Below are positions 3,796 to 47,228 of a stretch of DNA of 64,000 bases, in pieces (the stretch's first letter is position 1; each line of letters begins with the position of its first letter). The notes under the pieces are model-generated. The model saw nothing but the letters and a program-made list of their open reading frames with translations, ran no database searches and had not been told where the DNA came from. The DNA is from Sulfolobales archaeon HS-7 (GTDB lineage Archaea > Thermoproteota > Thermoprotei_A > Sulfolobales > Sulfolobaceae): NCBI GenBank assembly GCA_019704295.1, contig AP024596.1, positions 1,280,001 to 1,344,000 of the forward strand, read 5' to 3'. Made by a program: the position numbers and the translations under genes.

Positions 3796-5340
3796 TAGTC
3801 GTGTTAAGCCAATTTTACTAAAAATGAGACAATTTCTAAAACATAGGAAAATTCCGCTCAAAAAATAGAAATTAGCTAAATTTCCGTTGAAGTGGAGAAA
3901 GGATAGATTTTTATCTTAGAGAAAGGCCCGTAACTTAGTTTTTACACGTATAGTAATACCTTGTGTGTTATCAGGTAGGTAGAAATGAGAACGTTGAAGT
4001 TTAAGCGAGCGATTTCCTAAATCTAGGTATGAGGATAAGCAAACTAGGACAAGTCCCTCGCTAATAGTGGAGAAAGTGTTTAGGAAGATTTCCTCTAACT
4101 TCCGTGACATCATCAGGAAAATTAAATCCCCCGTCCTGGGGAATAGAAGGAGGGACTACATTTCCCTTGTAAGATAAGGGAAAAAGCTAGGGGAACTATT
4201 AGGTGGTACCTTCGAGTTCTGGGAACTGTGCTTGATCTTCTCTGAGACCGCGCTTGGTTTCGACGGGACCTTCCTGAGGGTAGGTGAGATGGAGGTGGAG
4301 ATAGTATGGGACAAACTCTTCTCAGGAAAGGTAAGTGCCGCGGATCTCTTGTCTCCCGTGAGGTGTGACGTGGTTACCCAATTCGCGGCTAGAGGAGATC
4401 AAAAGCTACCTGAGTTTCTTCAAGAATTCATTAACAAGGCTGTACAATACGTTAAACTGAGTTACGTTGTTGCAGACACTGGATTCCTCAACCTCGAGTT
4501 ACTCAAGGAGTTACCAGCGGAAGCCGTGAACAGGTAAAGAACAATTTCCACGGGGAAAACACGTAACATTAAGGATGAGGATAGCGAGTCCCTACAATGG
4601 TTTACTCTTAAAAGGTGCAAGTTTACAAAGAGTAAGAACGTGGAGAAATTCAACGTTGACTTAGGTACCGTTCTAAGCTTGCTGCTCGCATAGCCGTGTT
4701 AGAGACGAAGTGTATAGTGTCTTAAAGGGAGGGAAGGAACTCTTTGCCCAACTCCTTACCGTGAACTACTACATAGTTAAGAACAGAGCATACGTTACCG
4801 ACAGGGTGATAGAGTACAAGGGACTCTACTATTACGATGTGATTTACGTGAAACACAAGGAGAGACCAAAGCACTTTATTTTTATATCCATCATCAAGGG
4901 AGATCCCTACATGTTGACCAAGACCTACAGGTTGAGATATTGAGCAAGAATTTAAGGCGAGAAAACGAGGATTGAACTCATCAGGAGGTTGTGCAATAAA
5001 CCCTACCCGATCTACGCGCTCCTCGACACTTCCTGTAACTCGTATCTCTTCCTTTCGTTTAACTTCAAGGCAATGGGGAAAAGCCCCTAGCGTTTGAATG
5101 ATTCGTCAATCTCCCCTAGGCTTTTTCCAGCTTCAGGGTAGACTACGTACCTCGCTTTGACCTCGTGAGATAAATTCAGAACTTCTTGTGTTTGTTACTA
5201 TTAACTTGAAAAATATATCAGATTTTTACTAAACATATCATATTGCTACGCATCTTGAGTTAACTTAATCCTATATTTTCATACACTAATTACCCTAATA
5301 ATATCTTACAATCATGAGATTTTTTGGCGAAACAAGACTG
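3796..5340 (+). mobile_element. IS family A, full-length degenerate copy with a nested fragment (about 4535-4715) of another IS
   Basis: Collinear with 50161-51563. Degenerate left TIR at 3796 and right TIR ggcgaaacaagactg ending at 5340. The transposase is split over ORFs 4232-4537 and 4710-4943. The insert resembles 11410-11590. Confidence 0.85.
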
Positions 5341-5344
5341 TAAT

Positions 5345-5705: not shown

Positions 5706-6221
5706 TTATCCAACTAACCGTATGTATACTCCACTTATGTTCAGGTAAAGTATACCTCCAGTGTTCTGAGTTATTCCTCCGGAAGCCCCTATAGGAACGA
5801 CTAACCAATATATTACCCTGGGATATATCGTTAGGGGAAAAGTCACTTGTTGTTTATTAATTGAGTTATAGCCCTGAGAATAATTACATATATAATAGGT
5901 TCCCGTTAGCGGGGATAGTTTCCCGGTTTTAGGATTATACAGTAGAATATTGCTCACGCGTACTAGAAAATTTCCAACATCTTCAAAATAATACACGTAG
6001 TAACTACTGTTGCTATATACGTTAAGCGTTACTATTATTTTTCCCGAACTTATTATTGATTTTTCAACTGAGGATGAGATCCCCGCTCTATCGACGTAAT
6101 ATTCCCTAAGGAAATAGTAGTACGCATATCCCATCGCCATAAGGGTTATCAATATGAGTAATACCGATGCAACTGTTTCTGATACGGCGACTCTGCTTCC
6201 ATTTTTCTTTTCGACTCTCAT
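5706..6221 (-). CDS. Archaeal type IV pilin-like protein (171 aa)
   Basis: Basic leader then A|VSETVASVLLILITL, and a pilin-head motif EDVGNFLVRVSNI. GGTGA RBS upstream. Third gene of an operon. Confidence 0.8.
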   Translation of the reverse strand: MRVEKKNGSRVAVSETVASVLLILITLMAMGYAYYYFLREYYVDRAGISSSVEKSIISSGKIIVTLNVYSNSSYYVYYFEDVGNFLVRVSNILLYNPKTGKLSPLTGTYYICNYSQGYNSINKQQVTFPLTIYPRVIYWLVVPIGASGGITQNTGGILYLNISGVYIRLVG

Positions 6222-6230
6222 CCGATCACC

Positions 6231-6680
6231 CTATATCGAACTATAGTACTCATTTCCGTACATGGTTGTCACTATAATTCCCTGTAAATTGGGGTATTCT
6301 GATAAGTTAATGATAGTTGTCAACCTCTGTTGAGGGCTAATACATCTGCCCACCAAATTACTGGTTATAGCTATGAGAGATCCGTTTTGAACACCATTAA
6401 CCTCTGAAACGCCGAAAATCCCGGTGATTTTAGTTTCTATCGGTCCGTTATTAATTACGTTAACTACAATTGCTGGAGAACCGTCAACCGTTTCCTCGCA
6501 CAGTATAACTAATAAGCTCTCTCTATGCTTTAATACCTTCACTTCATCTATACACTTATATTCGTTGTTCACTTGAGATATTATCATCTGAGCATAAAGT
6601 ATTGACGATAAGGTTATAAGAAATATTCCAATTACGGCTATCATAACAATTATTGAACTTTGGGCTCTCTTGATTGACAT
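6231..6680 (-). CDS. Archaeal type IV pilin-like protein (149 aa), Gln at +1
   Basis: KRA|QSSIIVMIAVIGIFL class III signal. Head motifs INNGPIETKITGI and IVTTMYGNEY. GGAGGTG RBS. Confidence 0.85.
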   Translation of the reverse strand: MSIKRAQSSIIVMIAVIGIFLITLSSILYAQMIISQVNNEYKCIDEVKVLKHRESLLVILCEETVDGSPAIVVNVINNGPIETKITGIFGVSEVNGVQNGSLIAITSNLVGRCISPQQRLTTIINLSEYPNLQGIIVTTMYGNEYYSSI

Positions 6681-6682
6681 GG

Positions 6683-7204
6683 TTACACCTCCACGTAGAA
6701 TCCATCACTCTTAAACAACAGTTGGTTTCCTACTACTTTTCCGTTTATCAGCACTTTTGCCCAATACACGATATTAGGCAACAGAAGAATATAATTATTA
6801 CCGTTAATGAAAATGGGATCTACCTGACCTTTATTATCACAAAAGGTTATCGTACCGTAATACCGCGAGCTACTTGTTGACCCTAGGTTAGTAATTGAAA
6901 GGGGTAAAAGTTCCTTGCTACCGTTTCCCATACACGCAGCAAGAACGTATACAGGTAAATTCGACGTATCCTCTATGTAAAAGGTGGCATTATATTGACA
7001 TGGATTTGTGGTAGAATTGTAAAAGTAAACCACTGTAAGGAGTTGTCCTCCCTCTTGAATTATTTCCCTCTCTTTCATTAACATACCACTGACAGCTGCA
7101 GGAACTCGCGAACCGAAATAATAAAGCACGAATGACATAGCTGCTAATATAATAAGTATTAGAAGCATGGTGGATATTAGTTCTGAGACTCCTCTGTTTA
7201 ACAT
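6683..7204 (-). CDS. Archaeal type IV pilin-like protein (173 aa)
   Basis: Canonical class III signal MLNRG|VSELISTMLLILII. AT-rich TATA-like element about 25-30 nt upstream. Confidence 0.88.
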   Translation of the reverse strand: MLNRGVSELISTMLLILIILAAMSFVLYYFGSRVPAAVSGMLMKEREIIQEGGQLLTVVYFYNSTTNPCQYNATFYIEDTSNLPVYVLAACMGNGSKELLPLSITNLGSTSSSRYYGTITFCDNKGQVDPIFINGNNYILLLPNIVYWAKVLINGKVVGNQLLFKSDGFYVEV

Positions 7205-7600
7205 TAAATTTATTTACGCAAAGGGAATATATATGCTTTAATTAACATTACGATGTATCCATTTAGTTATTAAGAGCTTCGAAGCTTTTGATATTTTACG
7301 TATAAGAAGTTGATAAAGGCGTTAACTCTCCCCAGTTTCAGTGAGACCGTTATTAGGAATTTAGTAAAAAATTATTATACTTTAACGTAATTTAAAAGTT
7401 ATTATCAAACCTAGAGCACCCCCCTGAACGAATTTCAATAAATTGAAGAGCCTCCCCACATTCTTAAAGTTAAGAAAGCCTCGGCCTATGAATCAACTTA
7501 CGCTCATTCCTGAGGTCGCTTCATCAACATTTTCCGAAATAATAAGTCCTATCAAAATAAATTGGATAAACTTTATATTCAGGTAGGTTGCCCTACTCTT

Positions 7601-9844
7601 ATGAAAACTGGTAGAATTGAGTACGACTGTATCTTTAAGGGCATCCTAGCTCTTACGTTAATAGTGCTCTCTGTTATACCGATTTACGCCATCGCTCAAA
7701 ATAACGGTAATTCAACTTCGTATAAGTTGACAGAGTTCTGCGAACAGAGTTACGATTACAAACACGGGAGGATAATTTACGATTCCGCTCTTAATGCAAT
7801 AGTAACTTACGAGCACTATTCGCAAGGATTTATAATAACTTATCTGAGTAACCATTCAAGCTATTTCGTTGGCGTTAATGGTTCAGTGTGTTACGTCTTC
7901 TTTGATCGGCATAATTCTCTACTTTACGTTCAAACTAACAACGCACTTTGCGTCTATAACGGTGATAAGGTAATAAAGGCGTTAAATTCGTTAGGCGGCC
8001 TTAACTCGAACTCGAGTTTTGAATTTTGCTACTCAGCTGTAGATACTTCAAACGGTGAAATCTATGCTCTCGTGGCTACGTATATTTATCCTAATGAAAT
8101 AGTGGCTATAAATCCTAACAATTACTCAGTGATGGTGAAAAAAATATCGTCATCAGGGCTGTCCACTTTTCTAAACTCCATAGTATATGATAGTTACAAC
8201 AATAAGTTGTTCGTATTGGTGGATAGGAACGGAAATAGAGGACAGATTTACTCCGTAAATCCGTCCAATCTTAACTTAACCCTAATTGCAAATACATCAA
8301 TTGGATTTGCGATGGGATATTATAAGGATAACCTTTACGTTTTTGTGGAGAACACCTCCCCGGGAAATTGTACTGTGGATGTGGTTAACACGGTAACGGG
8401 AAATGTTACTCCAACTAACTTGAAACTTCCCTCAACTAATCTAGCAATAAGCTTACCTAACGGAGAAATATACGCTGGCACGAGTAACGGTACGTATGTG
8501 ATAAACGCAAATACCACCAGTATAGCGGCGGAAATACCAGTGACTCCAAACATTCTCTCCGGAATGGCCTACGATCCCAGCAACGACCTCGTTTTCATAG
8601 ACGGTACGAACCTTTTCTTGATAGCTGAAGTTAATCCCGTGAGTAATAGCATAACCGGATACCTCAATGCCTATCCGGTGGAGCCAGATTCTATGGTGTA
8701 CTTGGGGAACTCGATGTTGTACTTGGGCACGCCTAACTCGCATTACCTTTATCAGGAACAGCTTTCCCCATTAAGGATTATAAATCTCTTCGGACCATTC
8801 AGCAATCGCATAACGTCGATAGTGTATGATCCTGAGAACGGTTATCTTTACATAGGCCTGTATCACGATGAAATAGTTGTATTCAATCCCTCTAACGACT
8901 CCGTGGTAAAGGAAATCTCGTATTATCCAGATTTCGCTCTCACTAATTGCCTTGATTACATTCCCTCACTGAATGAGGTAGTGGCGACTACTTCTACGGG
9001 TGTAGTTGGAGTAAACGCTACAGATAACTCGGTGATTTACGAGTTCAATACGACTTTCAATCCAACGCAGATAGCTTACGACCTAAGCAACAACAACATA
9101 TACTTAGCAACTCAGGTGCATGATGCCATTTGCGTAATAAACGCTAAGAACGGAAGCAAGGTTGGAACTATAAACCTAGACGTCTCAGCAATACCGGCCA
9201 TAGCTTACGATCCCAATACCAGTTATATTTACGCGGCAACGAGTAATCCATCGTACTTTGACGTGATTAACGCTGACACTGGGAGAGTAGTATACAACGT
9301 ATCTATAGGTTTCAGCCCTAACAAAATACTGTACAATCCAGTAAATAAGTTAATTTACTTACTAGGTACCAGCGGTAACGGCAGCGGTGTAATAAAGGTC
9401 TTTTACCCATACGGATTTTACTTCATCTCCACTATAGGGATAAAGGGTAGTCCGGGGGCATCGGTAATAATTCCTCAAACCGGATGCTTATTAATTACGT
9501 CCTCAGCCGTAATAACTGAATATCCAACCTTAACTTACTTCAACATGTTATCACTAACGCAAGTAGTAACTCAAACAACGTCTCAAACTACGACACAGAC
9601 TACCACTCAGAGCAACACTCAGACTACTACTCAGAGCAACACTCAGACCTCGACCCAGACTTCATCGCAAACGACAGTTGAGCAAACTTATACGTCTCAA
9701 ACTATTTCTAGCACCTCCACACTGACCTCCCCTAAGCCTCCTACAGTGACCTCAAGAAGCTCCTTTAATCCACTTTTAATAGCTATCGTCGTTATTGTGC
9801 TCCTTATCATCATAGGAATAATCCTCATCTTAAGGAGAAGATAG
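7601..9844 (+). CDS. Membrane-anchored YVTN/YncE-like beta-propeller surface protein; paralog of 51660-53915
   Basis: Repeated (I/M)(A/V)YDPxNxxLY blades, signal peptide, T/Q-rich stalk, C-terminal TM plus RRR. Start moved from 7562 to the ATG at 7601, based on TATA spacing and alignment to the paralog. Confidence 0.88.
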   Translation: MKTGRIEYDCIFKGILALTLIVLSVIPIYAIAQNNGNSTSYKLTEFCEQSYDYKHGRIIYDSALNAIVTYEHYSQGFIITYLSNHSSYFVGVNGSVCYVFFDRHNSLLYVQTNNALCVYNGDKVIKALNSLGGLNSNSSFEFCYSAVDTSNGEIYALVATYIYPNEIVAINPNNYSVMVKKISSSGLSTFLNSIVYDSYNNKLFVLVDRNGNRGQIYSVNPSNLNLTLIANTSIGFAMGYYKDNLYVFVENTSPGNCTVDVVNTVTGNVTPTNLKLPSTNLAISLPNGEIYAGTSNGTYVINANTTSIAAEIPVTPNILSGMAYDPSNDLVFIDGTNLFLIAEVNPVSNSITGYLNAYPVEPDSMVYLGNSMLYLGTPNSHYLYQEQLSPLRIINLFGPFSNRITSIVYDPENGYLYIGLYHDEIVVFNPSNDSVVKEISYYPDFALTNCLDYIPSLNEVVATTSTGVVGVNATDNSVIYEFNTTFNPTQIAYDLSNNNIYLATQVHDAICVINAKNGSKVGTINLDVSAIPAIAYDPNTSYIYAATSNPSYFDVINADTGRVVYNVSIGFSPNKILYNPVNKLIYLLGTSGNGSGVIKVFYPYGFYFISTIGIKGSPGASVIIPQTGCLLITSSAVITEYPTLTYFNMLSLTQVVTQTTSQTTTQTTTQSNTQTTTQSNTQTSTQTSSQTTVEQTYTSQTISSTSTLTSPKPPTVTSRSSFNPLLIAIVVIVLLIIIGIILILRRR

Positions 9845-12261: not shown

Positions 12262-12373
12262 ACGGGTAATACATAATGTGATTGGTCAAAATTTTTGTAT
12301 TATTCTGAAGTGGTCCGTGATACACAGTATTAAGAAATATTTATATAAAACTAAGAACATAATATTATTTAGA

Positions 12374-15300
12374 ATGGATGATGTAATAGGCTTAATAGGA
12401 TTAGTCTTTGTCATAATAGTTTTAATTGGCGTTGGGTATTTATATGTATATTACAACCAACAAATAGAACAGTCCTATGAGAACTCTCTTATTGCTGAGG
12501 CCGAAGCAATGCAACAAGTGGGCTCCACTTTTGGTAATGGGACAATAGCCTATTACCAAAACCAAGGTAATGAGCCGATAGAGATAGTAGGGGTTATATA
12601 CTTTCCTGCAGGTTACAAACAGCCTTACGTTATAGACTTTAATTTCTCCGTCTCTAATTTACCCTTTTTTGCTAGTCCGTCCCTCCTAAAATACTATAAT
12701 TCATCCCTCGTAGAAGTTTACCCCGTTCCCAAGGGGAGCGAGTTCGAAGTTGTTACTAATGGAGAGGTAGGACTTGGCGGAGTATGGCTTGACCCTGGAC
12801 AAATAATTGGCGTTCCCTATGCATCTGGTGCAGTAGGATTTATAACGAATCTTGAGAGCACGTTTTACTATCCCTCCTATCCAATGTCTTACAAGCAAAA
12901 TGTCTCTCAACAGATTTCGGAATATGTAAACAATACAATTAACTCTATAAAAGCCGGTGCGTCTCAGGTTGCATCTCAAAATGAGGGAAAATCTCCACTA
13001 ATGTTAACCGTAAATGCAAACGGTATTTGTGTCTACGTTGATACTGCATCTGGGCTAGCGTATAAAACAACTGGAACTTTAGTAATTCCCCTAGTTCGAA
13101 ACACTACAGTATATATTGCGGCGTTAGGCGGAAACGAGTTGAGCTTTTCCTCATGGTCAGTTTCACCGTCCATAAGCAAGTTTAATGACAACAACCCAGC
13201 TAATATGTTCAACATAACGCAGAGCGAAACTATTACGGCGGAATCTACAAGTTTAAACACTAGTGAGTTTAACACTGGTAAGGATACGATAATTCCGGTA
13301 AGCGTAGATTTCCCTCACCCGGGTTTCCCGGCTGAAACAGCTGGGTATGCTGTTGTTAACAATAAGGTAACTATATCTAAGGATACCACGTTTGAAATAT
13401 CGAATCTCTCATGTATTCCCGTGTATGTTAATTCCTTTCCGTGGGCAACGAGCGGAAAAGCGCCTCGCATTGTTAATCAACAAATAATACCAAAGTGGGT
13501 AAGTCTAATAAGATATGTAAAGTGCGTCATAGACAAAGTTACTTATGAAGTTCCCGTATACAAAGTAGTCGAATGGGATTTCAGAACGTTGTGTGTAAGT
13601 TCGCCGGGTAATTATCAGTTGGGTTACGTTGGATGCACTATCGGTCCTCCTGTGAATGATGCGCCAAGTGCAATATACGAATACTACATAGACCAATTCA
13701 ATGTTCAAATTAACGTTGAATTCCCATACACAATATACTTATCCTATTACGTTAACATGCAAAATGGAAGTTTAGTCGGAGTAAATGGTTTCTCATACTC
13801 GAACTACACCGCAAACAACTTGTATACATGTAACGGGTGTCCAAATTACTACGTACCTAATACCGAGTACTTTAACCAAACCGGACTACTCCTACCGAAT
13901 ACTAGCGGAATATGGGCTTCGATAAAACCCACTAATGTTCAGGGAATAGAACAGTTAATATCCTATGCTCTTGCCCCAGGTTATTATAAGAATTTCACGA
14001 TATTAACGTCTGGGAACTTTTTGTCAAGTGTTACCGACGAGGTTACTGAGGAACAGTCGATAATTTGGATGCGGCCGTTAATTACTGTGCTAATAAATAG
14101 TCCTAATGATTCATTGCTAGAGGCAGGGTTTGTTAACGGGCAGTCAGGCAGTAACTCAACTGAGATCGTAAATCCGGGACAGATTGGGGCAGCCGTGGTC
14201 CCGTTTGGTTTTCAGTTAAACGTCTCAGCGAACTCCTGGGTTCAAAGTATAACATTCAATAAATGGAATATAGAGGGTATATACTTAAGCGGTAACATTC
14301 CGACGAGCAGTATACAGTATGTGAATCAAAAATTACAATCTCTTTACTCGTATTTAATCTCAAATATGAATAAAATTTGCTATTTTGGTAAATACAATAA
14401 TTTACTCACTTACTACAATAATAATATTCAAAACCTAAATAACACAGTAACCACCTCCAAATTAATAGGATTCGCGTCGTTACCGGTATTCAATTCCGGT
14501 ATGGTTGAAGCACTTTACAACGGAGGATATAACATAACATTAGTAATAGCGAACACGTTAGGAGGTACGTCGTTTGTAACTGACGGCATTGAAAACTTCC
14601 AAGTTGTTACCAATTACCAATTTGTCGCACCTGCAAACACAATGGTGCTTATTGTACCGGAAAGCATCACTACTTACTTCTTCTCAAACATTACAGGAAA
14701 CATAACAGAGGCAATGGGAAATGATCATTTATGTCTGTTAAACAGTTCGGGAGAGAATGAACCAGAGGTAGGTTCGCCTCCAACTTACTACTACCCGTTC
14801 CAAACATTTATATTAACTAAATCATACGGCGTTACAGAAAACTTCGTTAATTTACCCCCAAGGGTAGATCTAACTCCACTCTCCATGAAGATAACGGGAG
14901 TTGGCCAATTTAATATAACGGAATATGTTGATGACCAATTTGGTGGTTACAACTTCACGTATTCAGCTGGTACACCCTCGTCTACATCTCAATCTACGAT
15001 AACAGTAAAATATCCAGCAGGTTCCATAGTCTATATAAATGGCACGGGTGAAGTAACTTCCCAACCTCCTAATAATAAAATAACTATATGTTACCAACGG
15101 GGAGAAAACTCTCCTCAGGTATTATTTAACTCTCCAGATTTGGGCAGTAATAAACAGATCATTAATATGACTTATGTTTTTTCCGCTGCAGTTTACAACG
15201 TTATAATGGACAACGGGACATGGGAAGACGTGGCAATAGTATTGAATCCTTTGGTATATGCTATTGCCCATGTACATATAACTCCTTCAATATGGGACTG

Positions 15301-16684
15301 GTTAGCTTTCATAGCAGGAGTAGCAATTAATATAGTATTAATGGTATTGACTGCAGGGACGGATGAGGGGGGAATTGCGGGATTAACGGCGTTTCGAAGT
15401 GTTGATGATTTTATTCAGGCATTTGACAATGCTTTCGGTATAACAGCACTGAAAGATCTCGCATCAGATATAGGGGACGCAATCGCTGGAGATGCAGCAG
15501 ATAGTGTTTCGGACGTAATGGATAACATTTTAAGTGATCTCAGGGAATTTGTAAGTAAACCTCTTTTCAGTTTAGCGGGACAACTAGTAGAGATAGCTGG
15601 ATTAGCACTTCACAATAATATACTGATAGATATAGGAGATATAATGGTATTTATCAATTTTATAACCGGTATTTTAAACCTTAAGAAGATTATTCAGGAT
15701 ATAGGTGATTTTATAGACGAGGCCAGGACTGGAATCGGTAATATTATTAAAGATTTGAAAGGAATATCATCTAACCTGCAAGAGTTTCAAGAGGAGAGTA
15801 CTAAAATGGAGTACTTAATGAACGGTATATACTATTTAAATAATGGAATTGCTAAGATACAGGATGCACTTCATGATGCTGATTTCTTAGATTACGGTAC
15901 GGGAGTGGATGTACTTAAATGTCTCAATAACGCCAAGAGTGCATTTGAGGAAGCATTTCAGGGAGCAGACGTTCTTAATACACAGGGTCTGGACGACGCG
16001 ATTAATACGCTTAATGATATTCTAAATCATGGAGGAGGGCCAGCATCAACAATTGATCTACCTGAATTGGCTTCAGTTCTTAGTTCATCTAGGGACATAC
16101 TCGCTGAAACAGAGTACGCTGCATATGGAAACTTGATCAATATAGCGCGAAATCTAGTTGATATGGGGCAACAAATCTATTCGATATTATCTGAAGGCAT
16201 GGAAGTGTGGAACAATATAAAAGAGTTGGAGTACATACACGACTTCATAAATGCTGTAGAAAATGGGCAACCATTTGTAGTGTCTCAGTTATATATTAGA
16301 AATGGAGACAAATCAAATCAACTTTCGTTAACCATATCCTCTGTAACAATCGGAAATAAAACGTGTTATACTGTAAAAGGAACCGGAGGAAAAATTAATG
16401 CGAGTATACGTTTTAATACTCAAGGCGATTACAACATTGAGGTATGGGCGCAGACTCCCTCAATAAACTCTGGGAGTAAATCACTAATTTTCATTCCTTA
16501 CGGAGGTAAGATAACGAGCCCCTACAACCTACTAGACTCGTTCTTTAACGGATTAACGCTAAACATAGTTGCAGCTTACCAAATGTTCCAAGGTCAAACT
16601 AAGGTTATGCCAATACAAGTAACAATATTTGAGTACTCGAGTAATCAAATAAGTAATACTGGAGGATTCATAATTAACTATTAA
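12374..16684 (+). CDS. Giant (1436 aa) pilin-headed surface protein with beta-rich stalk, internal hydrophobic/amphipathic helical domain and C-terminal beta domain
   Basis: MDDVIGLIGLVFVIIVLIG helix plus pilin-head motifs (QNQGNEPIEIVGV, LDPGQ, FITNLESTF). Sequon-rich stalk with FxxW motifs of InlB-B-repeat type. Helical region at 15287-16272. Start moved from 12278 to the ATG at 12374, with TTTATATA at 12340. Confidence 0.85.
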   Translation: MDDVIGLIGLVFVIIVLIGVGYLYVYYNQQIEQSYENSLIAEAEAMQQVGSTFGNGTIAYYQNQGNEPIEIVGVIYFPAGYKQPYVIDFNFSVSNLPFFASPSLLKYYNSSLVEVYPVPKGSEFEVVTNGEVGLGGVWLDPGQIIGVPYASGAVGFITNLESTFYYPSYPMSYKQNVSQQISEYVNNTINSIKAGASQVASQNEGKSPLMLTVNANGICVYVDTASGLAYKTTGTLVIPLVRNTTVYIAALGGNELSFSSWSVSPSISKFNDNNPANMFNITQSETITAESTSLNTSEFNTGKDTIIPVSVDFPHPGFPAETAGYAVVNNKVTISKDTTFEISNLSCIPVYVNSFPWATSGKAPRIVNQQIIPKWVSLIRYVKCVIDKVTYEVPVYKVVEWDFRTLCVSSPGNYQLGYVGCTIGPPVNDAPSAIYEYYIDQFNVQINVEFPYTIYLSYYVNMQNGSLVGVNGFSYSNYTANNLYTCNGCPNYYVPNTEYFNQTGLLLPNTSGIWASIKPTNVQGIEQLISYALAPGYYKNFTILTSGNFLSSVTDEVTEEQSIIWMRPLITVLINSPNDSLLEAGFVNGQSGSNSTEIVNPGQIGAAVVPFGFQLNVSANSWVQSITFNKWNIEGIYLSGNIPTSSIQYVNQKLQSLYSYLISNMNKICYFGKYNNLLTYYNNNIQNLNNTVTTSKLIGFASLPVFNSGMVEALYNGGYNITLVIANTLGGTSFVTDGIENFQVVTNYQFVAPANTMVLIVPESITTYFFSNITGNITEAMGNDHLCLLNSSGENEPEVGSPPTYYYPFQTFILTKSYGVTENFVNLPPRVDLTPLSMKITGVGQFNITEYVDDQFGGYNFTYSAGTPSSTSQSTITVKYPAGSIVYINGTGEVTSQPPNNKITICYQRGENSPQVLFNSPDLGSNKQIINMTYVFSAAVYNVIMDNGTWEDVAIVLNPLVYAIAHVHITPSIWDWLAFIAGVAINIVLMVLTAGTDEGGIAGLTAFRSVDDFIQAFDNAFGITALKDLASDIGDAIAGDAADSVSDVMDNILSDLREFVSKPLFSLAGQLVEIAGLALHNNILIDIGDIMVFINFITGILNLKKIIQDIGDFIDEARTGIGNIIKDLKGISSNLQEFQEESTKMEYLMNGIYYLNNGIAKIQDALHDADFLDYGTGVDVLKCLNNAKSAFEEAFQGADVLNTQGLDDAINTLNDILNHGGGPASTIDLPELASVLSSSRDILAETEYAAYGNLINIARNLVDMGQQIYSILSEGMEVWNNIKELEYIHDFINAVENGQPFVVSQLYIRNGDKSNQLSLTISSVTIGNKTCYTVKGTGGKINASIRFNTQGDYNIEVWAQTPSINSGSKSLIFIPYGGKITSPYNLLDSFFNGLTLNIVAAYQMFQGQTKVMPIQVTIFEYSSNQISNTGGFIINY

Positions 16685-16785
16685 ATTATTTAAAATTTTT
16701 TGTATTATTTTATATATCGATTAAGTTATATTGCCAGTGATCTTTATAACTTTTAAGGTAAGTTCGTTAGGTTTTAAATTCCTTA

Positions 16786-18155
16786 CAGTCTTATTCTACA
16801 AAAAATCTCAAAATTATAAGATATTATTGGGATAAATTGTACATAGAAATATAGGATTAAGTGAACTTAGAATGCGTTATAATATGATATGTTTAGTCAA
16901 AATCTGGTGTATTTTACAAGTTAGCGCTAGGTATCACGAGAAGTTCTAAATTTATCCTACGAGTTCAAAGCGAGATATGTAGTGAAACCCCCCTGGCTTA
17001 AAAAAGCTTAAAGGAGATTGGCGAGCTAATCAAACGGTAGGAACTTTTCTCCTGGTACCTCAAAATTAAACGAGAGTAAAAGGTGTAAGTAGTGTTGAGG
17101 AGTGCGTAGATCAGGTAGAGCTTGCTGTACAAACTGCCTATGAGTTCTATCCTAGCTATCCTTCTCCTAAAGCCCTTCTCGACACCTCAATCTGTAGGTC
17201 TCCACTAGGCTATAAGAATCTTTCTTAATGTTCTATATGAGAACGAAGTGCATTGGTTTCCCCCCATGTTTCACGTAAATCACGTCGTAATAGCAAGGTC
17301 CCTTGTGCTCTATCACCCTGTAGGCAACGTAAGTCTTGTCCTTAACCCTGTAGTACTTCACGGCAAGGAGCTGGGCAAAAAGCTCCTTGGCTCCCTTTAA
17401 GTTGCTCCTTCCGTTAATCACAATGTTCGCCGAAAAATCCTTGAGAATCTCGAGGTTAAGGAATCAAGCGTCTGCAACAACGTAGCTTATGCTGACGTGC
17501 TGTACAGTTTTGTTGACGAACTCTTAAGGAAATTCAGAGGGCTTTTATCCCTTCTAGCCGTGAATTGGGTTACCGCGTTACACCTCACAGGGGATAAGAG
17601 ATCTGCAGATCTAAGCATGGTCTATCCCGAGAAGAGTTTGTCTCCTACTCTTTCCGCCTCCTTCTCACCCACGCCTAGGGAGGTCTTGTCGAATTACAAC
17701 ACGATCTCCTTACTCACGAAAATTGAACACAGGACCCAGAACTTAAAGGTTCTACCCAGGAGTTCCCCTAATTTTTTCCATGTCTAATAAGAGATATGTA
17801 ATCCTTTCCTCTTTTTCCCAAGGGGGGATTTAATTTTCCTGATGATATCACGGGGGTTAGAGGAAATCGTATTAAGCACATCCTCTACTATTAGCGAGGG
17901 ACTTATCCCTCATCCTGTTTTCCCTCATACTGAGATTTCGGAGGTCCCTCGCTTAACTTCCACGTCCACATTTCTACTCTCTCGATAATACACATGGTAT
18001 TACTATACATGTAAAATCTAGGTTACACATCCTTCTCTGAGATCATTGTAGATTCTCTCCTCAGTTAAAATTTAGCTAATTTCTACTCTCCTGGACGAAA
18101 TTTTCTCATGTTTCAGAAATTTTCCATTTTTAGTAAAAGTGGTAAAATACGACCG
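16786..18155 (-). mobile_element. IS family A, degenerate full-length copy
   Basis: Collinear with 50161-51563, with eroded TIRs (cagtcttattcta...; ...aaaatacgaccg) and a fragmented transposase. Confidence 0.85.
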
Positions 18156-20561: not shown

Positions 20562-21725
20562 ATGCAGGTTAGGGAACACATAAGGGTTCTAACTTTACTA
20601 ATCATCTGCCTATTTATTTGTACGATAGCGTGTTCAAGTGTAATTAGTTTATCAAGCAATTATACTATTGCAACTATTCAGGATAGTCAAAACGCTCACC
20701 CTACATGTGTTGTCTACGATCCTCAAAACAACGAGATCTACGTTACGAACTCAGGGGATAATGAGGTTTTAGTAATAAACGCTTCTGATAATAAGGTCCT
20801 AGGAGTTATTTATACAGGGCAATGTCCATACGGCGTTCTATACGATCCTCAAAACAACGAGATCTACGTTACGAACTCGTTCTCTAACACCGTATCTGTA
20901 ATAAACGCTTCCGATAATAAGGTAGTGTACACGATAAAGGTAGATCAGTGCCCTCGCGGCATAGCCTACGATCCTCAAAACAACGAGATCTACGTTACGA
21001 ACTCGTTCTCTAACACCGTATCTGTAATAAACGCTTCCGATAATAAGGTAGTGTACACGATAAAGGTAGATCAGTGCCCTCGCGGCATAGCCTACGATCC
21101 TCAAACAGGAATTGTCTATATAGCCTACTACTTTACGGATCACTTGGCATATATGAGTTCCATGACCTACGAGGTTAAGGGGAATATGACTGTAGGTAGG
21201 GGTCCGTTTGCGTTAGCTTTCGTATCAGGAGAGATCTACGTTACGAACTCGTTCTCTAACACCGTATCTGTAATAAACGCTTCCGATAATAAGGTAGTGT
21301 ACACGATAAAGGTAGATCAGTGCCCTCGCGGCATAGCCTATGATCCTCAAACTGGAGAACTTTACGTAGCTAACTACGGGAGTAATACGTTATCCGTGAT
21401 AAACACATCTAATAATGAAGTTATTGAGGAGATATCCGAGAAGTCTCCTTTTGGAATTTCATATGATCCTCAAACTGGAGAACTTTACGTAGCTAACTAC
21501 GGGAGTAACACGATATCCGTAATTAAAATAACAGGTGCAGTGCTTAATAAGACACAAGCACAAGAAACGAGGACGACCACTTATCATAGTTTACAGGTAG
21601 CTAATGGTAACTACTCGAGCGTAAACCCTCACAAAAGTGTAGTTAGAGGTAATATAGTGATTTTATTTATTGGAATAGTGATTTCAAGTATAGTTATACT
21701 CCTATTGATTAGGAAATGGAGGTAA
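20562..21725 (+). CDS. YVTN/YncE-type beta-propeller surface protein
   Basis: Repeats of YDPQNNEIYVTNSxSNTVSVIN, signal peptide, C-terminal TM plus RKWR. Confidence 0.92.
   Translation: MQVREHIRVLTLLIICLFICTIACSSVISLSSNYTIATIQDSQNAHPTCVVYDPQNNEIYVTNSGDNEVLVINASDNKVLGVIYTGQCPYGVLYDPQNNEIYVTNSFSNTVSVINASDNKVVYTIKVDQCPRGIAYDPQNNEIYVTNSFSNTVSVINASDNKVVYTIKVDQCPRGIAYDPQTGIVYIAYYFTDHLAYMSSMTYEVKGNMTVGRGPFALAFVSGEIYVTNSFSNTVSVINASDNKVVYTIKVDQCPRGIAYDPQTGELYVANYGSNTLSVINTSNNEVIEEISEKSPFGISYDPQTGELYVANYGSNTISVIKITGAVLNKTQAQETRTTTYHSLQVANGNYSSVNPHKSVVRGNIVILFIGIVISSIVILLLIRKWR
20841..21105 (+). repeat. Exact 126-bp intragenic tandem repeat (one propeller blade)
   Basis: 20841-20966 equals 20967-21092. 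A further copy of most of the unit lies at about 21229-21339. Confidence 0.9.
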
Positions 21726-22660
21726 ATAAAAATCTTAGCCTTTTTATTTTTAAAATATTAAAAGTTAGATTATAGAAATAATGTCTGGACGCACTTTCTT
21801 TCGTTTTTCTGGTCTCTCTATATCTTAAAGGAAGGGTTTACCGCTTTATGAAAGTTTTTATCTTTATAAAGGTTCAAGCGAAGACCCTATCCATGATGGT
21901 TAGTCTCATTACATGAAAACGTAAATATGATATACACCTCTCAAGCACGCTCATAAATGGATTAAGCGTCGTCAAGACCCTTAAGCGAGGGTCTGTGAGG
22001 TATGCCTCCTTTCCGATCAGCAATTTCGTACCGAACAAAGTCGCTATGTTCATCATGGAAGTGAAACCATCAGGGGTTGTAGAACCCTCTAGGCACGACG
22101 GAGGGGTAGGAAATCGCTAAATGGAGAGATATCCGTCTTGTTAGGGAAGAGATCGCCGAAGATCGTCTCATTCTATTTCGTAGACTTTAATACCTCAAAG
22201 CGTTATTTTCTTGAGTTAGCGAATTGCATAATATTTAACATAAGCCGTTCAATTCTAGAAATAATTGATTACTTTCACTTTATCCCATGTGATCTACCCA
22301 GCCCTATGGATTTCGCTTTCCAATGTGATCAAGGGATCTGCAGATACTAAGGACAATCCGTGTTCTTCTTCACGTTCAGCGTACTCTACACAGCACTGTT
22401 GATCAGAGTAGATTTCTCAATAATAATTACGACTCGGGTGTTTGTCACTGCGTAAATTGCCGTAACTAACATACTTAATTTAACCTATATTTGTAAAGAA
22501 GAGGTAATCCCATGCTTTTTTCGCGTTAAGGCGAAAATCAAAAAGTGACAGAATATACCTTAGAGCCCTATGAAAAAATTTCTTAAATCTTTAATACTAC
22601 AGAGAAAATCCAGGTTTAGTTGATGATAACTTTATATATCACTGTATGGAAATTTCCATA

Positions 22661-23788
22661 ATGATAAAATTAAAAGCTTCCCTAAGTGTTATATTTGTTT
22701 TGTTTATTGTTTTCATGCCAGTGGGTGCTTCTTTTTCTTTTGGGTTCGGAGATATTACACACACACTAATTAAAGTAAGAAACGTAGAGTTCGGAGATAA
22801 TCAGACATTATATCATCCCTTAATATCAAGAGATATATACGATACTAATCACCACCATATAAAACATCCACTTTCAATAAGTCCTTACAACTCGTACACT
22901 TCATCTCCAGCTCCAACAGGTATAGCTAATTACGGGCTCGACAACAAAACTGGATCATCGTATCTTTTATTAACTAATACAGTTATTGGTTATACGGATA
23001 TACACTCTGTTTCCGCGTACTGCCCACAAGCTACTAACAGTGGTGTAGGTACCACATATGCGACTCTACAATTAAACGTTGTTTTGATGGCAAATACCAG
23101 CTACGGAACATACGCATACTGGTTACAAGATGTGGGAAGCTTCCAGACAAATACTTCGACAATTACATTTATAGACAACGTGTGGAATCTGAGCGGTAAT
23201 CCCTCATGTTTTGCTTCGTCCTCTATTTCTGGTTCTGGACAGGTGTCTAACTCCCAGGGACAATGCTTCTATTACGACGTAGGACCAAGTTACACCTTTT
23301 CGACGCCTTTTGCCTACGAATACGTTATAAACGTCTCCTACAACAACGTCACTGGTAATATATTAGTGCAAATGGGTTATGCACTTCTTCAGAACGGAAG
23401 TTCTACGTTGAATACAGGTATAATTTACTATGACAACATCACAATAAACCAGTTTAACGCTACGGGAATAGCGATAGCCGTAGATGGGAACTCCTATACA
23501 CCAAACGCACTTTACTATGATGCTGAGCTCGTATGGGGAGGAGGAGGAAATGGTGCAACCACGAATTTCAATTCACTCAATTCAGAGCTTGGACTTTATT
23601 ATCTCTCATCCAGCGGAACCTTAACTCCGATGCAGACTTTATATACTTTTGGTTCAGACACTGGGGAGACTGCAGGCAACGTTAACGTTACAATGGTAAA
23701 CGGAATACCAACAGCTGTTAATGGTCAGGAAAGTCTAACGTTTTTAACGGATTCGTTTAATTACATCCCAGGTAACTTAATAGATTAG
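22661..23788 (+). CDS. Thermopsin (peptidase A5) precursor, secreted acid protease
   Basis: Motifs PAPTGIANYG, LQLNVVL, YWLQD, FIDNVWN, YDAELVWGGGGNG, FGSDTGET. Signal peptide. TATA spacing favours 22661 over 22646. Confidence 0.9.
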   Translation: MIKLKASLSVIFVLFIVFMPVGASFSFGFGDITHTLIKVRNVEFGDNQTLYHPLISRDIYDTNHHHIKHPLSISPYNSYTSSPAPTGIANYGLDNKTGSSYLLLTNTVIGYTDIHSVSAYCPQATNSGVGTTYATLQLNVVLMANTSYGTYAYWLQDVGSFQTNTSTITFIDNVWNLSGNPSCFASSSISGSGQVSNSQGQCFYYDVGPSYTFSTPFAYEYVINVSYNNVTGNILVQMGYALLQNGSSTLNTGIIYYDNITINQFNATGIAIAVDGNSYTPNALYYDAELVWGGGGNGATTNFNSLNSELGLYYLSSSGTLTPMQTLYTFGSDTGETAGNVNVTMVNGIPTAVNGQESLTFLTDSFNYIPGNLID

Positions 23789-27688: not shown

Positions 27689-28756
27689 ATGTGGAATTCA
27701 AATAATGAGTATAACGGCATTTCAAAATTAAGGTTTGCAGTTATATTAGCACTAGTTTCTTTTATATTGATTGTAGCTGCTTTATCAGCTGGATATTCAA
27801 TTTTAATAGCTTTAGCTGCTTCAGGAGGAGCCCCTGGGGCGTTAGCCGGTATAGGATTAGGAACTTTAATAGCTGTGGGGGTAGTAAGTTTAGCCTCATT
27901 TATCATATATATTATCGGTATATTTAACCTCAGGGGAGGATTTAATGATTTAGTTAGTGCGGGAGTTTCCGAAATGGGAATAGGTTCTAAGGGTGCCTTG
28001 CTTCAGATTATAACAATTATTATAGCAATAATTTTAGCAATTTTAGTACCCGTAATCGGATTTTTTTTACTTGGCTCATATTCACATGGACCCGTAACGC
28101 CGGGCTACGCTCCTGGAGTAATGCAACCGACAGGTATTCTACCAGCCATTAGCATTATATTGACGATAGTAGAAATCATTCTGGGAATAGTCTCTTTTGT
28201 AGGAGGGATTTTAATAGGAATCGGATTCTATAGAGTTGGTAGTAGATACGATGACGGCCTAACTAAAGTTGGTGGAATTCTATATATAATTCCTTTCCTC
28301 AACATAATAGGGGTAATACTGCTAATTCTAGGGCTTGGAACAATAAGGAATAAGCTCCAGGGAGGTTTTAGGCCTAGTAGCGGGCAATATATCCCGCCAG
28401 GACAACCCTATGGTCAACAGTATCCTAATTACGGGAGCAATACTTATCCAAGTTACGGTCAACCGCAGTATGGGGGACAGTCGCAGTATAGCCAATCTCC
28501 GTATAGCCAACCCCCTCAGCAATTTCCCCCTTCACAACCTTCAAGCAACCCGCAATACGGACAGGGAGGTTATGTCCAACCTACATACACACCTCAGAAT
28601 CAACCTTACTCCCCACAACCTCAATACAATCCTCAACCGCCTCAGACGCCGCCAACCACTCAACTGCCTAGTGAAAACAAGAAGATTTGCCCTGTTTGCG
28701 GGTATCAAAACGAACCAATCGCAAACTTCTGTACTAGATGTGGTCAGAAGCTTTAA
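27689..28756 (+). CDS. DUF973/DUF996-like multi-pass membrane protein with P/Q/Y/G-rich linker and C-terminal zinc ribbon
   Basis: About 5-6 TM helices, the motif IGFYRVGSRYDDGLTKVGGILYIIPFL, a low-complexity tail, and CPVCG...FCTRCG. Confidence 0.85.
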   Translation: MWNSNNEYNGISKLRFAVILALVSFILIVAALSAGYSILIALAASGGAPGALAGIGLGTLIAVGVVSLASFIIYIIGIFNLRGGFNDLVSAGVSEMGIGSKGALLQIITIIIAIILAILVPVIGFFLLGSYSHGPVTPGYAPGVMQPTGILPAISIILTIVEIILGIVSFVGGILIGIGFYRVGSRYDDGLTKVGGILYIIPFLNIIGVILLILGLGTIRNKLQGGFRPSSGQYIPPGQPYGQQYPNYGSNTYPSYGQPQYGGQSQYSQSPYSQPPQQFPPSQPSSNPQYGQGGYVQPTYTPQNQPYSPQPQYNPQPPQTPPTTQLPSENKKICPVCGYQNEPIANFCTRCGQKL

Positions 28757-31168: not shown

Positions 31169-32035
31169 TTATCTGGCCTCCTTTCCGCCAGTTATCAGCC
31201 TTCCACCGTGCTCAGTTAGGTATGAGACAACCGTGGATTTCTTCTGCCTTAACGCGTAATAAAGTACGCTATTTCCCATCATATCAATGAAATTAACGTC
31301 AGCTCCTGCTTCCACTAGAAACTTTATCACATCTAAATTCTCTAAATTACTAAGTGCTGCAGAAAATAATGGAGTCGTCTTGTAACAACCTACGATATTA
31401 GGAGCGGGATAAATGTTAAATAGGAACTTTAGGATGTCGAGGTAACCTTTATAAGCGGATAAATGATAGGGAGTACTTAAATTATCATTGCTCTCCTCTA
31501 CTTTAGCCCCGTATTGAATTAGTAATTCAACAATTTTTACATCTCCTACATATGCCGCCTGACCAATGGGTTTCACCTGGCACCCGTCTTTACCTATAAT
31601 ATACGCATTTACATCTGCGCCGTTATCTAAGAGTAACTTAACCATTGTATAATCTTTTTTTGCAATAGCCATTATTACGGGTGGCCCCATACCAATATCC
31701 GAATTGCTTTTGAATAAATTTACATTCGCTCCATACCTTATGAGCGTTCTGGTGATATCGTATTTTTCAGGAGCTCTGCTAATTATTGCAGTTTGCAAAG
31801 GAGTTAAAAGTTCAGGTAGTTCACGTGATGACTTCGAGAGCACATTAGGATCCCCGCCGTGTTGTAAAAGGATTTCGACCATCTCTAGGCGCCCCGATAT
31901 GACAGCTAGATGAATTGGAGTAAACCCTTTGAGCGTGGTGTGCTCGTTGGGATTCAATCCCTTCGTTAAGAGCTTGTTTAATTTAGACACATCGTTATTC
32001 TCTATAGTCTTTATGAGTTCTTTTTCATTAACCAT
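31169..32035 (-). CDS. Ankyrin-repeat protein (about 7-8 repeats)
   Basis: Repeated G-x-TPxHxA...ExVxxLLxxGADVN motifs. Confidence 0.95.
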   Translation of the reverse strand: MVNEKELIKTIENNDVSKLNKLLTKGLNPNEHTTLKGFTPIHLAVISGRLEMVEILLQHGGDPNVLSKSSRELPELLTPLQTAIISRAPEKYDITRTLIRYGANVNLFKSNSDIGMGPPVIMAIAKKDYTMVKLLLDNGADVNAYIIGKDGCQVKPIGQAAYVGDVKIVELLIQYGAKVEESNDNLSTPYHLSAYKGYLDILKFLFNIYPAPNIVGCYKTTPLFSAALSNLENLDVIKFLVEAGADVNFIDMMGNSVLYYALRQKKSTVVSYLTEHGGRLITGGKEAR

Positions 32036-33823: not shown

Positions 33824-34687
33824 CTACTTCGTCCCACTTAGGGAATAGATCTTGGTCAAGTATTTCTGGAAAGTCATAAATATGATAAATATTGGTATAC
33901 CCATAAGAACTGCAAACGCCGCAAATACGTTGTACAAAGTACTCCTGCTCTCAACTCCAAGATAGTACATTCCCAGAGTTAAAGTCCACAGATTTCCTGA
34001 GGTAATGAACAGGTTAGCAAGGGCGTAATCCGTGTAAGCTCCAAGAAACCCCAGTAGGGCTATAAAGGCTATTATAGGTCTAGCCATTGGTAGGAGTACC
34101 CTCATGAATGCCTGAAATCTCCCCAACCCGTCAACCATTGCTGCCTCTTCGTAGTCCTTCGGTATCGTGTCAAGAAATATCTTTACGAGGTAAGCCCCGA
34201 ATACCGAGGTACCTCCGCTGTAAGCAAGTATTAACCCATAATAAGTGTCTATTAGGTGAAACTTTGCGAAAAGTAGGTAAAGCGGTATGGCCGTTGCAGT
34301 AAAGGGAAAGAACGTCAAAATGTATATAAACACTATAAGTGCTTTCTTACCCCTCACACCGAATCTGCTTAGGGCAAGACCTGATGTAAAGGCAATGAAA
34401 ATCGATAGGACAACCGTACTGCCTGCTAAGATCAAGCTATTTCTTAACCAGAGGGGAAATGGGTTCTGAAATATTATAGAGTAGTAAGCCTGTAATGAGA
34501 TAGTCTTTGGAATAAGTGAACTTATGCTTATTGACGCGAGTGAGGGGATAGGACTTAGAGAGGTTATGACAATGTAATATATGGGAAATACGGCGAATAT
34601 GGCGAAGACTATCAAAGCGAGATAGGAAACTCCTACTCTTACCCCTGAGAGGATCTTATATTTGCTAACTCTCCTCCTCTTCTGCAT
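33824..34687 (-). CDS. malG: Sugar ABC transporter permease (MalG-like)
   Basis: EAA loop IPKDYEEAAMVDG, six TMs, operonic with malF and malE. Confidence 0.9.
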   Translation of the reverse strand: MQKRRRVSKYKILSGVRVGVSYLALIVFAIFAVFPIYYIVITSLSPIPSLASISISSLIPKTISLQAYYSIIFQNPFPLWLRNSLILAGSTVVLSIFIAFTSGLALSRFGVRGKKALIVFIYILTFFPFTATAIPLYLLFAKFHLIDTYYGLILAYSGGTSVFGAYLVKIFLDTIPKDYEEAAMVDGLGRFQAFMRVLLPMARPIIAFIALLGFLGAYTDYALANLFITSGNLWTLTLGMYYLGVESRSTLYNVFAAFAVLMGIPIFIIFMTFQKYLTKIYSLSGTK

Positions 34688-35602
34688 TTACCTCTCCTCC
34701 AGGATTCTGGAGTACTTAAACATGAGTATTCCCATGACCGTCAGTATAATAACCGATATGAAGGAGTAAGCCGCGGATAAGCTGTAGTTTTCAAAGGAGT
34801 AAGCCTCTTGATAGGTGTAAACTATGAGTATATCTGTGCTCGTACCCGGTCCGCCACCTGTGAGAAGGTATATAGGGTAGAAGTTATTCCACGTAAATAT
34901 GAACCCGCTTATCCCTATGAAAGCCATGGCGTTCTTCAGCATTGGTAGGGTTACCCTGGTGAACCTCGACCACATGTTCGCCCCGTCAATTGACGCAACC
35001 TCGTAAAGTTCCGGAGGAATGCTCTGCAGACTTGAGAGGAATATCGCAGTGTAATATGGAAATGATAGCCATACATTCGTTATTATAAGAGCCTCCCATG
35101 CAGGTGTGGGGATATTTAGCCAATTAAGCGGAGCTACGTGAATTAAACCCAGGAACTTGTTTATTATACCATATTCGTAGTTCCACATTCCCAGCCAAAC
35201 TAAGAGGGATATGAATGCGGGGAAAGCCCAAGGGACTAAGATCAAGGAGAAGAATAACCTTTTCATCCTTATCTCCTTCTGATTCAGAATTAACGCTAGA
35301 AGAAGACCTATCGCTATCATCGGAATTAGACTTCCCACAGTCCAGATGACGGTATTTACCAGTAGTTGAGAGAAGGTAGGGGAGGTTAGAATAAGGTAAT
35401 AATTGTGAAATCCTACAAACGTGTACTTAAAGAAGTGAAATAGGTTGAAGTTAGTAAAGGATATGTAAACTGCGTAAGCAACGGGGTAAAGAAATAGGAA
35501 GAACATCACGGCTATTGCGGGAAGTAAGTAAAAGTAACCGCTAACTCTACTAGTTTTTCTCCAAAACTTTCTTGAAAAAAATCTGAATTTACTTTTTTCC
35601 AT
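34688..35602 (-). CDS. malF: Sugar ABC transporter permease (MalF-like)
   Basis: ILVPWAFP and IPPELYEVASIDGA motifs. Confidence 0.9.
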   Translation of the reverse strand: MEKSKFRFFSRKFWRKTSRVSGYFYLLPAIAVMFFLFLYPVAYAVYISFTNFNLFHFFKYTFVGFHNYYLILTSPTFSQLLVNTVIWTVGSLIPMIAIGLLLALILNQKEIRMKRLFFSLILVPWAFPAFISLLVWLGMWNYEYGIINKFLGLIHVAPLNWLNIPTPAWEALIITNVWLSFPYYTAIFLSSLQSIPPELYEVASIDGANMWSRFTRVTLPMLKNAMAFIGISGFIFTWNNFYPIYLLTGGGPGTSTDILIVYTYQEAYSFENYSLSAAYSFISVIILTVMGILMFKYSRILEER

Positions 35603-35611
35603 TACCCAATT

Positions 35612-37030: not shown

Positions 37031-37060
37031 ACAAGGTCTAAATTATGATGTTAGTATCTG

Positions 37061-37088
37061 TTTATAAGGTTAATGCTAATTTAACCTT
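37061..37088 (-). promoter_or_regulatory. malE promoter: TATA box with adjacent inverted repeat AAGGTTAA-N7-TTAACCTT
   Basis: TTATAAA (minus strand) at 37061-37067, with perfect 8-bp arms at 37066-37073 and 37081-37088. Confidence 0.55.
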
Positions 37089-37152
37089 GATTTTAAAAAT
37101 AAAAATAGGAAAGTAAGTATTAATATGATGTATACGATTTGGAATATCGAGT

Positions 37153-43615: not shown

Positions 43616-43669
43616 AGTATAAATTGGGTATAGAAAGCTTAATTAATCTATTCTTATTTTATGTATAAT
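43616..43669. promoter_or_regulatory. Symmetric bidirectional promoter centred on TTAATTAA
   Basis: The palindrome at 43639-43646 is exactly centred between the ATGs at 43615 (-) and 43670 (+). Purine-rich BRE-like flanks on both strands. Confidence 0.65.
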
Positions 43670-47222: not shown

Positions 47223-47228
47223 GATGAA

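Follow-up and report, generated by a model that had tools for sequence, protein, structure and literature searches.

We analyzed a stretch of 64,000 nucleotides from Sulfolobales archaeon HS-7 (hereafter the window; C1:1280001-1344000, where C1 is the single contig of the 2,151,177 bp assembly). We studied an intact open reading frame (ORF) on its plus strand, P0001 (12374-16684), which encodes a giant protein of 1,436 amino acids (aa). Judged from its sequence, P0001 very probably combines a pilin head, a stalk, a hydrophobic junction helix and a variable module of exported type, and is linked to the bindosome (Bas) system. More tentatively, at a little less than an even chance, we propose a full mechanism in which P0001 would be the giant form of a fourth, leaderless pilin-like subunit of a Bas-clade filament.

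The head of P0001 was aligned end to end with the family of the neighbouring BasB-like class III pilin (hhalign 95%, E 2.7e-8, 117 columns). Therefore we consider it a true pilin fold without the class III leader. The leader, which is basic and carries a K/R-G/A PibD site, was absent from P0001, where the start methionine is accompanied by acidic residues, and a scan for class III signals detected the neighbouring pilins, not P0001. Of the archaeal pilin-like N-terminus described in the initial annotation, the pilin-derived head was thus retained and the leader was not. The start at 12374 is supported by the TATA-like box TTTATATA located ~30 nt upstream of the ATG and by the first methionine, at which the five giant homologs and the relatives from Saccharolobus all align. 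The position of this box also points to a leaderless transcript from 12374.

A profile of the head matched a protein of 512-523 aa in 7 of the 8 genomes of the Saccharolobus group. In S. solfataricus the homolog is AAK42796.1, the next gene after SSO2679 and thus SSO2678. Its head is related to that of the giants (z = 8-11), and it differs from them in length (~500 aa, all beta) and in its tail. The neighbours of SSO2678 passed the NCBIfam cut-offs for BasF, BasE and BasC. The Bas identity rests on NCBIfam, because the literature that we found names neither SSO2680 nor SSO2678. Bindosome loci have been reported to carry a specific secreted protein of ~500 aa (arCOG08524, PMC4858521), and SSO2678 is probably this protein. 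In a 2026 census of archaeal type IV filaments (T4F), the bindosome consists of three pilins plus basEF, and the census section on it includes no such protein (PMC13705601).

Further, we compared the distribution of the head with that of the Bas motor. Of 47 Sulfolobaceae genomes, 10 had head-family genes, and exactly these 10 also had a BasE-clade ATPase (E<=1e-105); they represent only three genera. The ATPases encoded beside the giants formed the sister group of BasE (support 95/94), and UpsE-like proteins branched outside. HS-7 has three giants, three Bas-like pilin triplets and two BasE/BasF-like pairs. The best NCBIfam scores of these pairs were 396-403 bits for BasE and 314-321 bits for BasF, which do not reach the respective cut-offs of 1000 and 1300, and all Bas matches in HS-7 were below the curated cut-offs. 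The paralog P0004 lies directly after a basF-like gene, and SSO2678 likewise follows basF. The ATPase and platform genes nearest to P0001 lie 7-11 kb before the window. The pilin triplet of the window (5706-7204) is of BasA/BasB/BasA-like type, and BasC-like genes were found at two other loci, below cut-off. The giants are thus accompanied by a BasE-clade ATPase with a BasF-like platform and by small pilins of the BasA/B/C type nearby. By its homology to SSO2678 the head is a member of the bindosome, which the initial annotation had missed. The association with filaments suggested there is supported by predicted links to a type IV filament machine, namely head homology, the BasE-clade ATPase and the Bas-like pilins.

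Two paralogs of P0001 are encoded in the HS-7 genome, P0003 and P0004, and further giants were found in Sulfuracidifex tepidarius and in the metagenome-assembled genome (MAG) UBA167 (Table 1). Pairwise tests among the giants gave z = 23-71 for the head and z = 17-42 for the stalk, and the junction compared with that of P0001 gave z = 5.6-10. Past the junction there was no detectable homology, with the exception of ~140 aa common to P0001 and P0003. The family therefore has a conserved N-terminal part (z = 17-71 for head and stalk) and a polymorphic C-terminal one, the pattern that the initial annotation had expected and that is characteristic of polymorphic toxins. The comparison shows that two other genera have replaced SSO2678 with giant, tip-variable versions.

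Searches with the distal part (from aa 940 or 960 to aa 1436) against protein sets of 5.8 billion and 1.84 billion sequences returned only the protein itself. Family profiles found the known members only, metagenome scans, tblastn against phages and plasmids, and Rfam gave no match, and a scan of 401 genomes of the phylum for homologs of the junction yielded nothing new. Feature matches in the ESM Atlas were all 0.85 or lower and were not used. One match, in G049, was rejected as a generic coiled coil within an unrelated protein.

At the end of the stalk the composition of P0001 switches sharply, as noted previously, to a hydrophobic helix (aa 977-995, Kyte-Doolittle (KD) 2.34). Past this junction the helical amphipathic moment goes from ~0.7 to 1.2-1.7. 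The Asp/Glu-rich amphipathic helices reported earlier were confirmed as well (50 D/E vs 16 K/R). Two weaker hydrophobic helices had also been described. We found a single further helix above KD>1.3 (aa 1083-1101, KD 2.04); the others showed up solely when D/E were treated as protonated. With D/E protonated, the junction helix was favourable in 4 of 4 members, and the polar helix of P0004 scored -6.7 kcal/mol. The junction helix of P0001 is followed by acids, not by K/R, and across the four members the residues behind it are acidic or neutral. The heptad repeat found in the distal part of P0001 is short or absent in P0003 and in the S. tepidarius protein, and the last 140 aa contain 0-2 His and few basic residues. 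Repeats like InlB-B/Flg_new_2 were weak, below cut-off, and present in stalk homologs only. Models of aa 900-1436 obtained with AlphaFold2 (AF2) had a predicted local distance difference test (pLDDT) score of 39.5 for the sequence alone and 34.1 with a 4-row alignment, and only their order of helices and strands was usable.

We wanted to establish on which side of the membrane the part past the junction lies, and the HS-7 genome was used as its own control for topology and glycosylation, with heuristic class assignments. There were 27 N-x-S/T sequons in aa 31-971 of P0001 (shuffle mean 15.6, P = 0.001), which agrees with the more than 20 counted by hand in the initial annotation. Its count for the helical region was also exact: aa 972-1300 contain 25 Asn and none is in a sequon, although against shuffles of this segment alone zero is not significant (P = 0.08). 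In aa 1301-1436 there were 2 sequons vs 2.45 expected. Since this is the chance level, the NKT and NAS sequons, previously taken as a sign that the C-terminus is outside, do not show it. The sequon-free gap of P0001 extends over 380 aa, and none of 52 other exported ectodomains of the genome had a gap of at least 250 aa. Across the parts past the junction of the four full-length members, which come from two lineages, we counted 8 sequons vs 17.8 expected (P = 0.008; P = 0.026 at the cytoplasmic rate), while other exported domains were enriched 2.1-fold. Helix content does not explain the low number, because sequons were still enriched 2.1-2.7-fold in helical windows of other exported HS-7 proteins.

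The charge of the module was informative in this respect. Cytoplasmic proteins of HS-7 contain 13.6% K+R (1st percentile 9.2%), and the parts past the junction of the four members contain 5.7, 3.1, 2.1 and 4.1%. Segments with <6% K+R lay within membrane-bearing proteins in 69 of 71 cases. These values bear on the possibility that the junction helix anchors the protein a second time in the membrane of its own cell, either as a stop-transfer segment with a cytoplasmic, possibly signalling C-terminus, or as a hairpin with aa 1083-1101, or by a dip into the outer leaflet. In 3 of 4 members the helix has the hydrophobicity of a membrane-spanning segment (KD 2.2-2.3), and the enrichment in sequons is lost exactly at the helix, as if the domain never met the oligosaccharyltransferase. 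However, true C-terminal anchors were followed by K/R in 35 of 35 cases (mean 2.9), and no K/R was present in the 10 residues past the junction helix in any of the four members. In all four K+R was below the cytoplasmic 1st percentile, and in P0004 the helix is polar and no later transmembrane segment exists. The combination of hydrophobic helix, K/R and a cytoplasmic-type domain that defines a type I anchor was therefore not found, and the low K+R, the lack of positive-inside charge and the polar helix of P0004 make an ordinary anchor, with its tail in the cytoplasm, unlikely. Instead, the module looks exported by its K+R content and charge, so the extracellular C-terminus of the initial annotation is supported, for reasons other than sequons. 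It also looks kept free of N-glycans.

Within the HS-7 genome it is unusual for an exported domain to avoid N-glycosylation; besides the giants, mainly substrates of the twin-arginine translocation (Tat) type behave in this way. Other proteins poor in both K+R and sequons are of this type (C1:1597625-1600198, that is L054:7626-10199, and C1:1560212), and one Tat-type pair adjoins the second basF-like gene.

Table 1. Features of P0001, its surroundings in the window and its homologs
Feature	Position	Strand	Remarks
Pilin, second BasA-like copy	5706-6221	-	E 5.8e-6, below cut-off
Class III pilin, BasB-like	6231-6680	-	NF053670, E 6.7e-6, below cut-off
Class III pilin, BasA-like	6683-7204	-	NF053669, E 2.3e-8, below cut-off
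TATA-like box TTTATATA	12340-12347	+	~30 nt 5' of ATG
Whole P0001 gene	12374-16684	+	1,436 aa
N-terminal hydrophobic helix	12374-12451	+	like an already processed pilin, without basic class III leader
Pilin-fold head	12452-12898	+	homologous to SSO2678 and BasB-like pilins; z 8.5 without the helix
Beta-rich, sequon-rich stalk	12899-15292	+	~800 aa; 17-35% conserved among giants
Junction: W-D-W and hydrophobic helix of 20 residues with small residues and Gly at its end	15293-15358	+	kept among members
Acidic amphipathic helices	15359-15619	+	15 D/E vs 4 K/R; homologous to P0003 only
Second hydrophobic helix with two Asp	15620-15676	+	octanol scale -4.3 kcal/mol charged, -10.6 protonated
Ile-rich heptad repeat	15677-15898	+	~11 heptads; period 3.45; a/d positions 71-74% hydrophobic
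Further acidic amphipathic helices	15899-16273	+	member-specific
C-terminal beta-rich domain without anchor	16274-16684	+	no detectable homology between members
Decayed insertion sequence (IS)-like copy	16783-18153		100 bp past the stop codon; sits where an immunity gene would
Paralog P0003	C1:1614235		1,300 aa
Paralog P0004	C1:1268653	-	1,415 aa
S. tepidarius giant	IC006_0407		1,177 aa; one copy
MAG UBA167 giant			partial, C-terminus unassembled

According to the mechanism that we tentatively propose, the mature-type N-terminal helix of P0001 would either lie in the cell's own membrane or join BasA/B-like pilins at the distal end of a short filament. The stalk, with its glycans, would carry the C-terminal module past the pseudo-periplasm and the S-layer. 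HS-7 was isolated from a spring of pH 2.3 and 65-68 C (PMC8459659). At an outside pH of 2-3 Asp and Glu would be protonated and the unglycosylated helices could form a hydrophobic contact surface. The W-D-W helix might then partition into lipid or another hydrophobic target (the membrane of another cell, vesicles or a mineral such as sulfur) and so tether the cell. The variable distal helices and the beta domain would pick the target, and the three paralogs would be three interchangeable tips. Such a protein would act as a non-lethal contact tether and not as a toxin with an immunity partner.

Several observations weigh against this mechanism. The test with the protonated scale was unspecific, as aromatic strands of the stalk also scored negative, and the junction helix of P0004 is not hydrophobic at neutral pH. 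No confident structure was obtained, since both AF2 models had pLDDT of 34-40. Only four full-length members from two lineages were available, so the P values overstate independence. The Bas system has been reported to shape the envelope and not to build a classical filament (PMC3047682), and the leaderless, archaellin-like ArlF/G are pseudo-periplasmic stators (PMC8978795), so that display at a tip is no more than a possibility. Finally, a 99% complete genome from the genus of S. tepidarius gave no match, and for this reason the giant is not a general sulfur adhesin.

The distal part could also be a strut or belong to an ordinary adhesin, with the helix buried in a soluble oligomeric bundle (an Ile-rich coiled coil of trimer type) and no entry into a membrane. 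The variable beta head would then bind the S-layer, glycans or substrate-binding proteins, in the manner of a long envelope tether of ArlF/ArlG type that would belong to the Bas machine. The ~11 Ile-rich heptads fit such a bundle, weak matches to stalks of trimeric autotransporters and to GCN4 coiled coils were found (E 0.14-2), and tight packing could keep glycans out. SSO2678 works without the helical module, a leaderless head is also present in ArlF/G (PMC8978795), and deletion of basEF disturbs the S-layer in a system reported to shape the envelope (PMC3047682). However, a strut would leave unexplained the best-conserved distal feature, a helix of 20 residues that is hydrophobic throughout and bordered by Trp on its N-terminal side, as well as the distal beta domain, which is not enriched in sequons either, and the short or absent heptads of two members. 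We regard the strut as rather unlikely, and a second anchor in the cell's own membrane, discussed above, as unlikely.

We also considered a contact-dependent toxin or translocator, whose helices would form a pore in a competitor cell or carry the distal domain into it. As in polymorphic toxins (template PMC3482391), a delivery head is followed by a stalk, a hydrophobic helix and a variable end; a lack of glycans would be of use to a part that has to cross a membrane; and hydrophobic helices among amphipathic ones are known from colicins. The genes downstream, in contrast, gave no support. Behind the stop codon of P0001 come a T-rich tract and a decayed IS but no small gene, and the gene downstream of P0003 is convergent and glycosyltransferase-like. 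Small immunity genes, which the initial annotation had suggested to look for, were present after no member, although some toxin systems do without them (PMC3482391). A six-frame search of the HS-7 genome with hidden Markov models and phmmer found no orphan C-terminal cassettes. Downstream of the S. tepidarius giant lies a membrane gene of 190 aa, which we do not regard as an immunity gene because HS-7 lacks it and genomes devoid of giants have it.

Neither did the protein itself resemble a toxin. No match to toxin, pre-toxin or translocator families was found in Pfam (E<=5), PHROGs, NCBIfam or PDB sequences, and the resemblance to SipB/IpaB, colicins, diphtheria T and pre-toxin regions proposed in the initial annotation was not reflected in any sequence or profile match to these proteins or to PT-TG. 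Matches to annexin, enterotoxin, NPV_P10 and TMP_N were short and below cut-off and were rejected. The composition of the last 140 aa is unlike that of nucleases and poor in residues of catalytic type, a shift in GC content at the junction was absent in 3 of 4 genes, and only 2 residues distinguish the giants of the two S. tepidarius strains. Where the exterior is always acid, a trigger of the diphtheria T or colicin type has no counterpart. The low-pH trigger suggested previously therefore does not fit an organism whose exterior is constantly at ~pH 2 (isolation site pH 2.3, PMC8459659). Altogether a toxin seems improbable. A fusogen or a channel for transfer of DNA or protein between cells would be in line with a hydrophobic segment followed by a heptad repeat, which recalls class I fusion proteins, and with faint matches to tape-measure-like phage proteins (E 6e-4 to 0.1). 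These matches, however, represent a generic coiled coil below cut-off, there is no C-terminal anchor, and none of the loci contained DNA-processing genes, which makes this explanation hardly credible.

A further reading is that the Bas-clade filament of HS-7 and Sulfuracidifex serves as a contact weapon or transfer device and inserts the glycan-free module into the membrane of another cell. We found no description of a pilus-borne, membrane-inserting effector of archaea in the literature, and we consider such a device quite unlikely. In such a device the pilin-fused giant would be displayed together with minor pilins of its own, and would either open a pore or hand over its variable C-terminal domain.

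Several other genes were observed around the giants and Bas-type loci. Inverted decayed IS-like copies (3798-5343 and 16783-18153) bracket the pilin triplet and P0001, whose ORFs stay intact; a composite transposon was rejected, as the flanking copies are 74% alike and come from a family of ~12 copies. A small, similar winged-helix protein, a candidate regulator, is encoded beside giant loci of HS-7 and S. tepidarius (L004:18249-18608, L013:1504-1854). Near P0003 there is a 565-aa ORF (L004:16515-18212) without a Pfam match, whose HEHCH motif suggests a putative metallopeptidase. Zn-ribbon membrane proteins recur near Bas-type loci (L013:15661-16242, L036:15031-15771, window 27689-28756), where those of arCOG07264 were noted before (PMC4858521). 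The window also contains a sugar ABC transporter (33824-40899). A class III signal makes its binding protein (35612-37030) a candidate Bas client; the ORF at 39124-40899 beside it is putatively glucoamylase-like. No HS-7 ATPase fell firmly within the archaellum clade, and a long-branch type IV ATPase (C1:1703951-1705486) has its own pilins (C1:1706212-1707767).

A second pilin-like cluster is located at 42302-47693 of the window and comprises two leaderless pilin-like genes on the minus strand and three class III genes (542, 458 and 154 aa). There is no ATPase nearby, and three long genes of the cluster have no Pfam match. Two surface proteins (7562-9844 and 51660-53915) are beta-propeller paralogs that have S/T linkers and are anchored C-terminally, and a third propeller, of NHL/YncE type and with near-exact internal repeats, is encoded at 20562-21725. 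We also identified a thermopsin-family protease (22646-23788; PF05317, E 4e-74) and an ankyrin-repeat protein (31169-32035). To our knowledge, ankyrin-repeat proteins are uncommon in Sulfolobales.

New in this work are the co-occurrence of SSO2678 with BasE, the test of polymorphism and the genome-wide controls of topology and glycosylation. SSO2678 may be a fourth pilin-like subunit, overlooked so far and co-occurring in every case, and the genetically tractable Saccharolobus would allow its deletion. This bears on what the bindosome physically builds, a question that has stood since 2011 (PMC3047682). The giants suggest that the role of Bas-clade machines goes beyond the placing of sugar-binding proteins. 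Should the module enter foreign membranes, it would offer cells in hot acid a novel way of contacting or antagonizing each other.

Among known systems, the giants share with Bas and SSO2678 the leaderless pilin head, the position after basF (P0004), the BasE-clade ATPase, the BasF-like platform and BasA/B/C-like pilins. They differ in length (1,177-1,436 vs ~512 aa), their stalk has no detectable homology to the SSO2678 tail (z<=2.6), and they add the hydrophobic/amphipathic helical module and the variable beta end. Unlike in Saccharolobus, in HS-7 the Bas system is duplicated and the giant triplicated. ArlF and ArlG are similarly pilin-like, lack the class III leader, are encoded with a T4F motor and face the pseudo-periplasm (PMC8978795), but they are single-domain proteins of ~160 aa of the archaellum, whereas the giants occur with Bas-clade ATPases and have ~1,250 extra residues.

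Polymorphic toxins (PMC3482391) and VARTIG of Thermococcales (PMC8416519) also join a conserved delivery part to a variable C-terminus. In contrast to them, the giants have no immunity genes, orphan cassettes or recognisable toxin domain, and they vary between paralogs and genera, not between the two available strains. With SipB/IpaB, colicin channels and diphtheria T the giants share hydrophobic helices among amphipathic ones and a coiled coil, but not sequence or profile matches, a type III system or a changing acidity outside, which for the giants is constant. Tip subunits and adhesins of type IV pili (PilY1-like arCOG03511 in 4A/B and arCOG05616 in 4G, PMC13705601) are large, are encoded beside minor pilins and probably serve surface recognition. 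These tip proteins are described as PilY-like or of Ig fold, and the giants differ from them in the hydrophobic helical module, with which none has been described, and in their Bas subsystem, from which no such tip protein has been described.

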